Positions 8,102 through 13,007 of a stretch of 13,007 bases of DNA are shown here, piece by piece. How positions within the stretch are numbered: the first letter of the stretch is position 1; each line of letters begins with the position of its first letter. This stretch comes from a virus. The notes under the pieces are model-generated. The model was not told where the DNA came from, searched no databases, and saw only the letters and a list, made by a program, of their open reading frames with translations. The translations under genes were made by a program, and so were the position numbers. The DNA lies in UHGV virus genome UHGV-0327156. One strand, written 5' to 3'.

Positions 8102-8998
8102 CTATGATTTCGACACAACTATTTTCCCCAAATCAAAACTAAATTCGACATCCCCATTTACGATATTTTCATTTGTCACATGCTCATCAAAAAGGTCACT
8201 AACATCATACCCCGACTGAAACACTGGGCTCATGATAGCCACGTCGGTGAATGGCTCTTTTTCATGTGTTATATAATATTGACCATAAACATTTGCAGAT
8301 TTATCTGCATCATTAAGACTAAGGACTGTTTTTGCTTTGACTTCAGGCATCAGAGAAAAATCAATATTATTCAACAAACACAGTAAGATGCCTGCTATTG
8401 CTCTCCTGTTATTATCAAGCGGCATCAAGTCCACCCCTGGAATCTCCTTCCGAAGCAATATTTTCAGCTCATTAAATAAAGAGTCGAACTTAATTGCGTC
8501 AGAACAATTGAGTAACGACAAAGCTTCATTAATCATTCGCCCTTCATTGGAACCAATTTCTGGTGTTAACTTACAAACACCATCATTAACAATATACGAT
8601 TTCTTGTTATTAAGCTTCTTCCTCGCTGTAATTACCTGCCCCCCCTTTAAGTTTAACTTCTCCTTTAAAAACTCATCACTGAACATTCTTAATTGCAGTC
8701 TGATTAATGTAGGTAAGTATTTCGGGTATTCATTTAACTCTGGTTTAACAGCATGCTTATCGCGTCCAAATTTTAAACTTAATAACAAATGATTCCTCAG
8801 CATGATATCCTTTATCTCGCCTTGATCTCTCCGATGATTATGGGCAACAAAACTCCCAATTTCAAAAATACACTTGGGCGCACTCGGCAACTCACGGGCC
8901 GTAACAAAAAGAACATCAATATCACTATCAGTGAAACTCCCATCCTTTAATCTTCTCAACACTCTCTCTATTCTTGAGATTGCTTTACTTTTATTCAT
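8102..8998 (-). CDS. Hypothetical protein, 298 aa; AT-rich accessory cargo at the P2 old/tin hotspot; candidate anti-phage defence or exclusion protein
   Basis: Clean ATG at 8998..8996, uninterrupted 298 codons, GC about mid-30s % by eye against more than 50 % in flanking phage genes. Same orientation as the early operon. No Walker A, HNH, nucleotidyltransferase or HEPN motif that I can recognise. Confidence 0.8.
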   Translation of the reverse strand: MNKSKAISRIERVLRRLKDGSFTDSDIDVLFVTARELPSAPKCIFEIGSFVAHNHRRDQGEIKDIMLRNHLLLSLKFGRDKHAVKPELNEYPKYLPTLIRLQLRMFSDEFLKEKLNLKGGQVITARKKLNNKKSYIVNDGVCKLTPEIGSNEGRMINEALSLLNCSDAIKFDSLFNELKILLRKEIPGVDLMPLDNNRRAIAGILLCLLNNIDFSLMPEVKAKTVLSLNDADKSANVYGQYYITHEKEPFTDVAIMSPVFQSGYDVSDLFDEHVTNENIVNGDVEFSFDLGKIVVSKS

Positions 8999-9324: not shown

Positions 9325-9528
9325 TCAACAACGTGGTAGCAGTGCAATTTTAGACTGTTCTATATCGTTAAACCGCACGTAATTATCCCGGACTATTTCG
9401 GCACACCCGACCAACTCGTCGGGCGTCAGATTTTCGTTGACCATAATCTGCTGTAGACGGTGAACAATAGCCATCAGCTTGATATTTTTAGTGTTATGTT
9501 GCGGTATCTCGCCTGGTATTCTGTGCAT
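9325..9528 (-). CDS. Small hypothetical protein, 67 aa, translationally coupled to the upstream gene
   Basis: ATG at 9528..9526 overlaps the TAA stop of the DUF3850 gene (TAATG). The ORF track's 71-aa version begins at a GTG. No recognisable motif. Confidence 0.55.
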   Translation of the reverse strand: MHRIPGEIPQHNTKNIKLMAIVHRLQQIMVNENLTPDELVGCAEIVRDNYVRFNDIEQSKIALLPRC

Positions 9529-9983
9529 TATCCAAGCCACCCGTTTTGCTTTGCACGCTCAATCTGTTCATCTGAATAGTTCCATGCTCCATCCGTGGCA
9601 ACCATTGCCCCGCCAGACATCCCCGTCTCTGGTTCATACATAACAGCAAGGCCGAGCTGATGCATAATTTCATGATTAATTCTGAATACCAGACCACGCT
9701 CACTAAGTTCTTTCCAGTTCACAATCTCATATGCGCCTGTATTAAGCAGCTCAATACTTAGCAAGACATAATCTTCCAGCCAGTCTGACAGGTCAGTAAC
9801 ATCTGTTATCCGGGCTTCAACCTTTCGCCCCGTATACACACCCTGCCCCCATTCATGCAAAATCAACGTGTCTCCGCGCTCATAATTACGGTCATTTTTC
9901 CGAAACTCTGCGCGTTTCTTTCCTTCCAGCACAAGGTCGAAATATTTTGCGTGCAGCTTTACCTCGTGAATTTTTGCCATCAT
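9528..9983 (-). CDS. DUF3850/ASCH-like (PUA-fold) protein with a C-terminal HExxH-containing extension, 151 aa
   Basis: ATG at 9983..9981 overlaps the A stop (ATGA). The N-terminus KIHEVKLHAKYFDLVLEGKKRAEFRKNDRNYERGDTLILHEW matches the DUF3850 signature I recall (HElKi...yF..vl.G.K.fE.RkNDR....GD.L.L.E). The C-terminal part contains HEIMH. Confidence 0.7.
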   Translation of the reverse strand: MMAKIHEVKLHAKYFDLVLEGKKRAEFRKNDRNYERGDTLILHEWGQGVYTGRKVEARITDVTDLSDWLEDYVLLSIELLNTGAYEIVNWKELSERGLVFRINHEIMHQLGLAVMYEPETGMSGGAMVATDGAWNYSDEQIERAKQNGWLG

Positions 9984-12265
9984 GTCCACTCCATTACTGT
10001 TGAGAATCCCGGCCACTCATCAGCGACCGGATATGTGAATTTTTTCCCGTCATAATTTACAGTCGCGCCACGCGCCAACGCCTCAAGCTCCCATCGCTGC
10101 GGCCTTATACCGTTCTGAGCAAGGTCAACGCGGATACGGGTAATTTGCATTCTTTCCGACCGGGTCAGTCTGGCCGATGGTGCAATTTCATGTGGTTTTA
10201 ACGGGCTTCCGTTTCTTTGCTGACGATTTGGCGTTCTCAGGCCGTGTTTTAATGCGCCCCTGAGCGCCCTCACAACCTCCGGGTCATTCCATTCGATAAC
10301 ACCGTCATCAACCAGATTAAGCACTGCTGCGGCGTGCTCAGAAGGTGTGGGAGCCGGTAACGAAGTATCACAACCGGTGACCTTTCCACAGTTATTGACA
10401 GGACTCCGAGGCGCGGCGATGCCGCTTTTTAAAGTCAAAGGCTCAACGACCGGAACTTTCGGCACAATGCGCCAGTCCGTCGTTCTGGTGATATGAATAT
10501 GACGCGCGCCGAGATGCGGCGCGTAAATGCCGACCACTCTCTCGACTTCTTCCTCGTACTCGTTAACGTCATCCGACGGGCTACGGGCAACCCTGACAGT
10601 CTGACAATCGCGTGGGACATTTGCCCCGCCCTGCGCGCTGATATACAACGCAAAATCACCACTGTCTGCGGCGGCGCGTGCAGCCTCGACGCGTTCGTCA
10701 AACTCATCAGCAATGCTGACGCCGCGAGGCAATTTGCGTAGTTCACGGTAAGCCCCCATTGTCGGCAGACCAACCGTTTTAAATTGCGGGATACGCCACG
10801 TTGACGCCCATGCGGTAACAGCCGCTGCAGTGTCTTTCAGCGGTCTGCCGGTATCGTTATCGAGCTGCCCATCCAGTGCATAGCCGTCGATATTTTTTGA
10901 GATGTATTTCGCGATATACCCCGCAGCACCGCCCCGATTAAGATGTTTTGCCTGAAAACGGTTTCGCGCAGCTCCTCTTTCGTCGCCATCCTCTTTGAGC
11001 GCGTAGCGACGCATGATTTCGATAATCTGGTTACGCTGGCGTGGATTACAAAAAAGCATCATATGCCAGTGCGGCGTTCCGTCGTGGTGTGGCTCGACGA
11101 CTCGCAAACCGTAGACCTGTAAATCATTATCCTTGAATGCCGTGCGCATCAGGCTCCAGATACGGCAGAGATAACGCTGCGCATCCTTTGGATTAAATGC
11201 CTCATCGTTCCAGCCGTGATTTAGCTGGACGGTTTTACTTTCGCCTTTTCCAACCTGACGTGTCGGGTGATACTTTGACGGCGCGGTCAGCGTGATAAAC
11301 ATCCCCACATCACCCTCTGCAGCGGCGTAACGCTCAATACCGGCAATGGTGTTCATCAGCTCCATCCGGCGAATTTCAGGATTAGAAATACTGCCCATCA
11401 CCTTACTGATAAGGTCGATGCGCTCGCCTGTTTCCCTGTTTTCGAGATCACACGATTTAAGAAATTCCAGATTTGCCTGGCGGCGTGCACGCACATCACG
11501 AATGGCATGTTTACTGGCATAAGGAGAACGGTCTTTATTGACCTCCCCGACAGCAATCAGTAACGCCTCATGCCAGCGCATACGCTGGCCTTTAAGCTGA
11601 CTAATCCACCACTCATCGTTAAACAGACGGGCAATGGCAGAATATGCCTGCCTCGTGGTCATCTGTCCTTTACGGTATTTTTTCCAGTAGAGAGGGGAAA
11701 TATTGAAAGCTCGTGCAGCGCCAGCAACATGACCATACAGGTGATCCTGAGCCTCATCCGTAAACAGTGATTCTTTCTCGCCATGCGCATCCACCCAGGC
11801 ATCGCTGAGTTCCTCATACATCATGAAAAGCTGCGATGAGATACGGGCGGCAAACTTTTTCAGCTCCTTGTCATTCATTCCCGGCAGGCGCGCATAGTGG
11901 TCACGCTCAGCCAGAAACAGCATCGACGCGTCGGTGTTCATTTCATGGCGCTGATTCACACGCTCAATGCGCGGCCATAAACGACGCTGAAAAGTGGATG
12001 TGAGGAAATAAAACCCGTGCACCGGGCTTTTATTGCGCCGGATGTAGTCATAGCGTGACGTAAACAGCGAGCGCAAAAAGTAAGGCAGGCGGTTAATCGT
12101 GGATAAAACACCTTGCACCTGACGCATCTCGTCACGTGTAAGGGGTCTTTCGCGCCCGACAGCCTCGCGTGGCGCGTTCCATGCATAAGCACCGGTAAAC
12201 GTCTTACCGGTGCCTGCGGCAAATGCTGACGGAGGGACAAAACGCCCGGAGGCTTTAACGGCCAT
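9980..12265 (-). CDS. A: Rolling-circle replication initiator endonuclease gpA-like, 761 aa
   Basis: The ORF track's 775 aa start at a TTG (12307); the internal ATG at 12265..12263 gives 761 aa starting MAVKASGRFVPPSAFAAGTGK..., the P2 gpA length and N-terminus I recall. Confidence 0.9.
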   Translation of the reverse strand: MAVKASGRFVPPSAFAAGTGKTFTGAYAWNAPREAVGRERPLTRDEMRQVQGVLSTINRLPYFLRSLFTSRYDYIRRNKSPVHGFYFLTSTFQRRLWPRIERVNQRHEMNTDASMLFLAERDHYARLPGMNDKELKKFAARISSQLFMMYEELSDAWVDAHGEKESLFTDEAQDHLYGHVAGAARAFNISPLYWKKYRKGQMTTRQAYSAIARLFNDEWWISQLKGQRMRWHEALLIAVGEVNKDRSPYASKHAIRDVRARRQANLEFLKSCDLENRETGERIDLISKVMGSISNPEIRRMELMNTIAGIERYAAAEGDVGMFITLTAPSKYHPTRQVGKGESKTVQLNHGWNDEAFNPKDAQRYLCRIWSLMRTAFKDNDLQVYGLRVVEPHHDGTPHWHMMLFCNPRQRNQIIEIMRRYALKEDGDERGAARNRFQAKHLNRGGAAGYIAKYISKNIDGYALDGQLDNDTGRPLKDTAAAVTAWASTWRIPQFKTVGLPTMGAYRELRKLPRGVSIADEFDERVEAARAAADSGDFALYISAQGGANVPRDCQTVRVARSPSDDVNEYEEEVERVVGIYAPHLGARHIHITRTTDWRIVPKVPVVEPLTLKSGIAAPRSPVNNCGKVTGCDTSLPAPTPSEHAAAVLNLVDDGVIEWNDPEVVRALRGALKHGLRTPNRQQRNGSPLKPHEIAPSARLTRSERMQITRIRVDLAQNGIRPQRWELEALARGATVNYDGKKFTYPVADEWPGFSTVMEWT

Positions 12266-12530
12266 ATGAGCCAAAAGCCTCTGAACAACGCTTGCTGAGT
12301 TGCTCAACCTGCGCGTTTAAATCAGCAAAAGACTTTGCGCTTCCGGTCAGAATATCGTGATGCATCAGGCCGGAAACGAGCTGGCTTAATTTCGGGTAAT
12401 AACCAACCACCGCCAGCCATTCCTGACCGGCGTTTTTACCGCTTTCCGCTCTCTTTTTCTCGTGGAGAATAAACTGGAAGCTGTCACTGGTAACGACATA
12501 ACGTTCGCCAATTTCAATACGAATACTCAT
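12255..12530 (-). CDS. Small early-operon protein, 91 aa, function unknown (P2 orf8x-like position)
   Basis: ATG at 12530..12528 with GGAGAA 6 nt upstream; overlaps the A start by 11 nt. Composition like the phage backbone. Confidence 0.7.
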   Translation of the reverse strand: MSIRIEIGERYVVTSDSFQFILHEKKRAESGKNAGQEWLAVVGYYPKLSQLVSGLMHHDILTGSAKSFADLNAQVEQLSKRCSEAFGSYGR

Positions 12531-12697
12531 GCCGTTCTCCGGTAATGTTTGTTTTTTGCTTCAAAAACTGACTGACAGGAAACACAACGCGTGGCTGACG
12601 GATAAGCCGCACGACGGGCAGCAGGTATTGGCGCGTCACACTCTTCGCAAACGATCGCAGAAGCACCGCAATGTGTGCTTTGATGTCCTGTTCTCGT
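12527..12697 (-). pseudogene. TraR/DksA-family C4 zinc-finger ORF lacking a start codon (5' truncated or frameshifted)
   Basis: Minus-strand frame encodes ...IVCEECDAPIPAARRAAYPSATRCVSCQSVFEAKNKHYRRTA*, closely resembling the TraR/DksA zinc ribbon (CEACGNPIPEARR...CVECQ...RKHY). Its TGA overlaps the ATG of the 91-aa gene (ATGA). There is no ATG/GTG/TTG between the upstream in-frame TGA (12700..12698) and the zinc finger, and the frame opens where GC content drops. Confidence 0.55.
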
Positions 12698-12736
12698 TCA
12701 GTTGTATTACTGAATAACGCCTTAAAAATCGCCGTT

Positions 12737-12985
12737 ATGAAAAATGGCGATTTGTCTCTTATTCAACTTGGTCTTGATAAAGAAAAACGCGAAATAACTG
12801 AGTCTGTTATCGCGATTTATCAGAACGAATTAAACCTCCTGTCTGATGTGGTCAATTTGCTTGTTAAACGCGCTGTGTTTCACAAGCAAATCTCCTCCGT
12901 GGATGAACTGACGAAATTAACGACAGAAATCGCCAGCTATTGCGCTGATGAATTTAAAAACCTTAACGACAAAAGGAACTGGTAA
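12737..12985 (+). CDS. Hypothetical protein, 82 aa, first gene of an AT-rich plus-strand module
   Basis: ORF track gives 12671..12985, but its first 22 codons lie in the GC-rich TraR-like remnant. The ATG at 12737 begins the AT-rich segment (MKNGDLSLIQLGLDKEKREITESV...). Weak RBS. A possible TTGTAT/TAAAAAT promoter pair lies at 12702..12729. Start uncertain. Confidence 0.45.
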   Translation: MKNGDLSLIQLGLDKEKREITESVIAIYQNELNLLSDVVNLLVKRAVFHKQISSVDELTKLTTEIASYCADEFKNLNDKRNW

Positions 12986-13007
12986 TGCCGGACAACGTAG
13001 ATTTTAT
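12985..13007 (+). CDS. 5' end of a second plus-strand gene (MPDNVDF...), truncated by the window edge
   Basis: ATG at 12985 overlaps the TAA of the preceding ORF (TAATG), suggesting an operon; only 7 codons are visible. Confidence 0.3.

Follow-up and report, generated by a model that had tools for sequence, protein, structure and literature searches.

A start-less TraR/DksA-type zinc-finger frame near the end of a P2-like phage sequence: a probable 3' remnant of the orf82 homologue at an inversion-type junction

The DNA described here, referred to throughout as the window, is a stretch of 13,007 nucleotides representing the virus genome UHGV-0327156. Close to its end lies a minus-strand open reading frame of 56 codons that encodes a zinc-finger motif and has no start codon. 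As judged from its sequence, the frame is a gene fragment of the TraR/DksA zinc-finger family, specifically of P2 orf82. In our best reading, to which we assign a probability of about 0.9, it is what is left of the 3' part of the P2 orf82 homologue, codons 27-74 of 74, without function and located at an inversion-type junction. The junction, at 12674|12675, separates the 3' part of orf82 from its own 5' end. The DNA that follows it is the normal upstream sequence of the phage, namely orf81 and the initial 23 nt of orf82, in reversed orientation. The join itself most likely arose as a chimera or fold-back where a short-read contig ended and would not, on this reading, be a structure existing in the phage population. 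Relevant features of the window are provided in Table 1.

Table 1 Features of the window and their coordinates
Feature	Position	Strand	Description
298-aa cargo protein	8102..8998	-	without Pfam or PADLOC match
Small cargo ORFs	9325..9540 and 9528..10016	-	ORF of ~67 aa and protein of ~150 aa
Gene A, replication (gpA; 761 aa, ATG at 12265)	9980..12265	-	intact, colinear with P2
orf83 homologue (DUF5405, 91 aa)	12255..12530	-	intact; ATG overlaps the orf82 stop; GGAG six nt upstream; DUF5405 at 51 bits
3' fragment of P2 orf82 homologue	12527..12674	-	third base of codon 26, codons 27-74 (HCGAS...HYRRTA), TGA stop at 12529..12527
Private substitution, orf82 codon 33	12653 (codon 12655..12653)	-	ATC in the window; ATG in the closest relatives, CTG in most
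Inversion-type breakpoint	12674..12675	.	complement of P2 27625 joined bluntly to P2 27238
Pseudo-extension	12675..12700	-	eight sense codons, the eighth of which shares only its third base (12674) with orf82, and an in-frame TGA; antisense of the orf81 start region, not orf82
Flipped segment	12675..13007	+	complete orf81 with the 8 nt preceding it and the initial 23 nt of orf82; truncated at the window end
orf81 (100 aa, DUF5405)	12683..12985	+	Pfam DUF5405, 117 bits
First 23 nt of orf82	12985..13007	+	ATGCCGGACAACGTAGATTTTAT, encodes MPDNVDFI

The frame begins directly after a TGA at 12700..12698, extends over 56 sense codons (12697..12530), and terminates with a second TGA at 12529..12527. 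Its translation is TRTGHQSTHCGASAIVCEECDAPIPAARRAAYPSATRCVSCQSVFEAKNKHYRRTA. The absence of a start codon had been pointed out in an earlier, sequence-only reading of this DNA, and indeed neither ATG, GTG, and TTG nor CTG is found in frame back to the upstream TGA. The only near-cognate codons are ATC at codon 15 and ATA at codon 24. Two further observations of that reading, an intact TraR/DksA-type C4 zinc ribbon and a coupling to the next gene, were likewise confirmed. The ribbon is formed by CEEC, 17 intervening residues, and CVSC (CxxC-x17-CxxC), and the fragment matches the Pfam family PF01258, zf-dskA_traR, with a score of 44.3 bits (E = 1.7e-11). As the gathering score for this family is 24.9, the match is not a chance one. 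The stop codon overlaps the ATG of the downstream gene as ATGA at 12530..12527. Beyond the ribbon lies the C-terminal helix, QSVFEAKNKHYRRTA, which is identical to that of P2 Orf82. Missing from the frame is the N-terminal helix with its DxxDxA-type acidic tip (D3 and D6), residues 1-26 not being encoded upstream of the fragment.

Intact homologues contain 74 amino acids, 34 of which precede the CEEC motif. The sequence-only reading had set about eight codons ahead of the zinc finger against about 35 in a full-length gene; of the codons ahead of the zinc finger, only those from 12674 downstream belong to the gene. Nucleotides 12527..12674 display 98-99.6% identity to P2 27625..27772 and to relatives, and I33 in place of L33 is the sole difference from P2 Orf82 within residues 27-74. 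The plus strand of the pseudo-extension matches the P2 27238.. region (GTGCTTTGATGTCC...).

Alignment to intact homologues places the break in homology at 12674, such that codons 27-74 of 74 are kept. Window positions 12674..12202 on the minus strand correspond to P2 27625..28097 on the plus strand, and window positions 12675..13007 on the plus strand correspond to P2 27238..27570, also on the plus strand; that is, the terminal segment is flipped relative to the rest of the window. There are neither microhomologous nor filler bases at the 12674|12675 join. The abruptness of the break is evident from a set of 141 fetched P2-like loci. In all of them (141/141) the colinear match stops at exactly 12674, and in 116 of the 141 it restarts at exactly 12675 on the other strand. 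None (0/141) spans the junction.

In P2 and in every intact relative examined, the genes are arranged in the order orf80, orf81, orf82, orf83, A on one strand, with products of 74 (orf80, DUF2732), 100 (orf81, DUF5405), 74 (orf82, zf-dskA_traR), and 91 (orf83, DUF5405) amino acids. In the window the downstream half of this Pe early operon, orf83 and A, is kept, and the upstream orf81 is flipped. Codons 1-8 of orf82 are found, flipped, at 12985..13007, and codons 8-26 lie outside the window. When window positions 12985..13007, 54 nt taken from the relative L004, and window positions 12674..12527 are placed end to end, a perfect 74-residue Orf82 results. The proposal of the sequence-only reading that an early gene of a P2-like phage had lost its 5' end was thus sound, the gene being P2 orf82 with its intact homologues of 74 residues, but the 5' end was not simply removed, given that its beginning is still present on the plus strand. 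The missing start codon is accounted for by the junction, which parts the fragment from its 5' end.

No inverted repeats pairing the two breakpoints (9993 and 10380 in L004) are present in the intact relative. A 6-bp AAGCAC/GTGCTT pair does occur at the junction; it is a mere reflection of a direct GTGCTT 6-mer found at both P2 sites. Template-switch scenarios built on this 6-mer were dropped, as they did not reproduce the observed product. It can also be noted that orf81 and orf83 flank orf82 in all P2-like phages and, both belonging to DUF5405 (117 and 51 bits, respectively), are diverged paralogues. In intact phages they form direct repeats around the TraR homologue, and here they face each other.

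The junction was not found in any of the sequence collections searched. It is covered by none of 50,697 phage records and none of 5,426 complete E. coli genomes; both halves occur in the standard arrangement in 75 of these phage records and in about 1,600 of the E. coli genomes. As a 28-mer and as a 22-mer it is absent from IMG/VR, the GTDB representative genomes, and the JGI metagenome contigs, and the second junction predicted for a simple 387-bp inversion is absent from the same three collections. The intact breakpoint 23-mer, which served as a positive control, was detected in at least 120 IMG/VR contigs, and the scans therefore do detect this phage group. No exact match to the junction-specific ORF of 104 amino acids is on record.

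Several explanations that would dispense with a rearrangement, or that would leave the frame functional, were considered. Past position 12700 the GC content declines to 0.38-0.42, with a gene encoded on the opposite strand. The sequence-only reading had correctly noted that the break coincides with the start of this AT-rich plus-strand stretch, and had attributed the truncation to the insertion of a foreign module that deleted the 5' end of the gene. This explanation is refuted. The supposed module is the phage's own orf81 (DUF5405) in flipped orientation, followed by the true beginning of orf82. Over its 333 nt the segment is 100% identical to P24C9 and several prophages, in which it is the normal upstream neighbour, and 97% identical to P2. 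Moreover, orf81 is equally AT-rich across all relatives, and the gene collection contains 13,054 blocks with an identical product, only in intact prophages. Since the DNA past the junction corresponds to the phage's own orf81 and orf82 start, nothing foreign was inserted. A sequencing frameshift or base error concealing a full-length ORF, a possibility raised in that reading, is likewise refuted. Nothing speaks for it beyond the absent start codon, whereas the alignments to 141 relatives extend without gaps to 12674 and end abruptly there. In addition, codons 1-26 of orf82 show no similarity upstream in any minus-strand frame and are assigned instead to the plus strand at the window end. Finally, initiation at a non-canonical codon, for example the ATC at 12655..12653, might be thought to yield a functional mini-protein made up of zinc ribbon and C-terminal helix. 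Both elements are indeed intact, and the frame is still coupled to orf83 through ATGA. No Shine-Dalgarno sequence is found ahead of either the ATC or the ATA, however, and the fragment lacks the N-terminal DxxDxA helix, on which activity depends (PMC9239242). Equally short homologues or homologues with non-canonical starts, which the sequence-only reading had entertained, were not encountered among the relatives, all of which encode 74 residues and start with ATG. The arrangement is a singleton, and hence there is no sign of selection. Such a mini-protein is considered highly improbable.

The origin of the junction is a question of finer balance. A technical artefact at the contig end is regarded as the most likely explanation, at slightly better than even odds, and is favored over a real inversion private to this phage. 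The absence of both the junction and the predicted second junction from the collections, together with a unique substitution only 21 nt away and a window end only 333 nt away, argues that the join is artefactual or else very recent. The 0 gaps over 12,674 nt relative to the nearest relative, which resemble sequence of short-read quality, point in the same direction. A singleton join at a sequence end, accompanied by a private base change nearby, has the look of a chimeric or fold-back contig end. The window resembles such joins in its strand switch to sequence 387 bp away at its extreme end, in its singleton status, and in the adjacent private base change. It differs from them in the lack of microhomology at the join, a few bases of which are usual in chimeras formed by fold-back or amplification. 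Also weighing against an artefact is the finding that the nearest matches on either side of the junction come from one lineage, of the H31/L004 type, with 0/333 and 1/144 mismatches, a pattern that a genuine in-place inversion would also give. A chimera of two co-resident prophages was set aside, the mismatch patterns, at few informative sites, placing both sides in the same lineage. A contig broken at a polymorphic base is not supported, given that the base following the window end is invariant in 21 relatives. The main competitor of the artefact is a genuine private 387-bp inversion in a prophage (P2 27238..27624), in which two breaks and a flipped rejoining would have split orf82 and placed orf81 antisense to the early operon, the remnant being a pseudogene starting to decay. 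The geometry fits a simple inversion with its second junction, ...CGCGGGGAG|TTTACCCTTGCC..., about 54 nt past the window end. The derivation of both sides from one lineage and a blunt join without microhomology, which is atypical of template-switch chimeras, are in keeping with this explanation. The substitution at 12653 could then be drift in a dead gene, and the early replication genes could still be expressed, orf83 and A keeping their own ribosome-binding sites. Against these points, neither junction was observed in any searched collection even though the phage group is very heavily sampled, the breakpoints show no inverted repeats that might drive the flipping, and, for an arbitrary window end, a junction lying within 333 nt of it would be expected by chance in roughly 5% of cases. 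A private inversion is accordingly a tentative alternative, possible but clearly less probable than an artefact. What probability remains is shared between an inverted duplication that is a real fold-back and minor rivals. The structures differ in the sequence expected past 13007. An inversion predicts 54 nt (TCAGG[A/C]ACAACAGGCTGAATTACTGGAGCGCCAGATTAACGCGGCAAGGGTAAA) and then the complement of the orf80 3' end, with the junction ...GGCAAGGGTAAA|CTCCCCGCGAGA..., whereas in a fold-back these 54 nt would lead into ACATTGCGGTGCTT..., i.e. a second copy of orf82-orf83-A. Among the minor rivals, a programmed invertible DNA switch turning orf81 and orf82 on and off would be in accord with the flipping of only this discrete segment, but it is very unlikely. 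Contrary to what is expected for a switch of the Hin/Gin/Cin or Fim type, the segment ends carry no inverted repeats in intact relatives, and there is zero microhomology. No invertase or recombinase gene is present in the window, and the only one nearby in relatives is the phage integrase, about 2 kb upstream. The flipped orientation occurs only in this window, the standard one being that of the E. coli genomes, phage records, and IMG/VR contigs counted above. Furthermore, one breakpoint interrupts a coding sequence and the other parts a ribosome-binding site from its start codon. A real, reversible or recurrent flip in the P2 early operon that switches off Orf82 and orf81, by which a prophage might, for example, silence a toxic early gene, gained no positive support and is scarcely more probable.

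The substitution at 12653, a change from G to C as read on the minus strand, is the only base within 12200..13007 that differs from both the closest relative and every other sequence. Among 135 fetched loci, codon 33 is CTG in 129, ATG in five, and TTG in one; ATC occurs in none. A 27-mer carrying the 12653 allele is absent from IMG/VR, and an exact 60-mer carrying it has no match in the 1,338 complete E. coli genomes that contain this stretch. Drift in a dead gene, mutation associated with repair, or an error in a read could each account for the change. Downstream of the breakpoint the closest relatives have a single in-frame ATG, which is lost here through the substitution; a CGATCG palindrome arises at the same time.

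The known counterpart of the fragment is P2 Orf82 (AAD03304.1), a TraR-type ligand of the RNA polymerase secondary channel, which is annotated in Peduovirus genomes as 'DksA-like zinc-finger protein' or 'TraR/YbiI family protein'. The purified P2 protein competes with DksA for RNA polymerase and inhibits rrnB P1 with an IC50 of about 250 nM (PMC9239242). A critical element in this family is the N-terminal helix, which bears the DxxDxA motif and makes contact with the region of the active site; indeed, either of the substitutions D3N and D6N cripples lambda Orf73 (PMC9239242). The fragment and P2 Orf82 have in common the C4 ribbon, the C-terminal helix, the ATGA overlap with orf83, and the location upstream of orf83 and gene A. 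They differ in that the fragment lacks codons 1-26 upstream, a start codon, and a ribosome-binding site, and carries the private I33 codon. The RNA polymerase secondary-channel regulators TraR of the F plasmid and Orf73 of phage lambda belong to the same Pfam family, PF01258, and the intact P2 protein shares their three-element architecture. In contrast, the fragment is without the N-terminal helix, the element with the DxxDxA motif that extends to the active site, and thus could not work like TraR even if it were translated. Considering the missing start codon, ribosome-binding site, and N-terminal helix, we infer that the fragment makes no active protein and is a dead remnant. If the structure is real, the downstream replication functions could still be expressed from Pe, in that orf83 keeps its GGAG and gene A is intact. 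The flipped orf81, severed from its GGAG and antisense to Pe, would not be expressed.

The biological weight of these results is small, in that the gene is the already characterised TraR homologue Orf82 of P2 and this copy is a broken singleton. There is no new biology here. The value lies in annotation: the 56-codon frame is the 3' piece of a gene, lying where a rearrangement or a misassembly has joined two segments, and not a novel start-less gene or the mark of a foreign insertion. The terminal 333 nt may be misassembled and are suspect in downstream analyses.

With respect to its overall map, the window is a phage or prophage of the P2-like kind (Peduovirus), and its minus strand follows the P2 map. 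Colinearity with P2-like genomes is kept all the way to window position 1, through gene A, the orf83 homologue, the cargo region, cos, genes Q, P, O, N, M, and L, and the lysis genes. For gpA, no record with an exact match to the 761 residues was found. The nearest fetched relative is L014, an E. coli prophage, with 99.48% identity over 12,674 nt. The 66 mismatches between the two are clustered as in natural mosaic recombination and include no indels, and random sequencing error was therefore rejected as the source of the divergence. The window is itself a mosaic. Its bulk is 99.5% identical to the L014 type, whereas the orf81 of L014 is only 92.8% identical to that of the window. The orf81-orf82 stretch matches another prophage type (L004/L005/L008 and H31) perfectly, and the recombination boundary lies approximately at orf82/orf83.

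The cargo slot between gene A and cos/Q, which is occupied by tin and old in P2, contains three ORFs here. The product of ~150 amino acids carries DUF3850/ASCH and DUF7415 domains, and the ORF of ~67 codons sits between its gene and that of the 298-residue protein. Identical copies of the latter are recorded in 1,787 blocks of the gene collection, in the same slot in all loci shown and only in intact prophages. The 298-residue protein is uncharacterised and represents a candidate anti-phage or accessory gene product. Two related prophages show rearrangements of their own. In L019 (about 14654..15247) a resolvase/invertase gene and tail genes directly follow the terminase gene, and in L015 (about 11140..12633) the portal gene is absent and the terminase gene is shortened. 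As can be seen from these two examples, P2-like prophages of complete genomes do bear real structural lesions.
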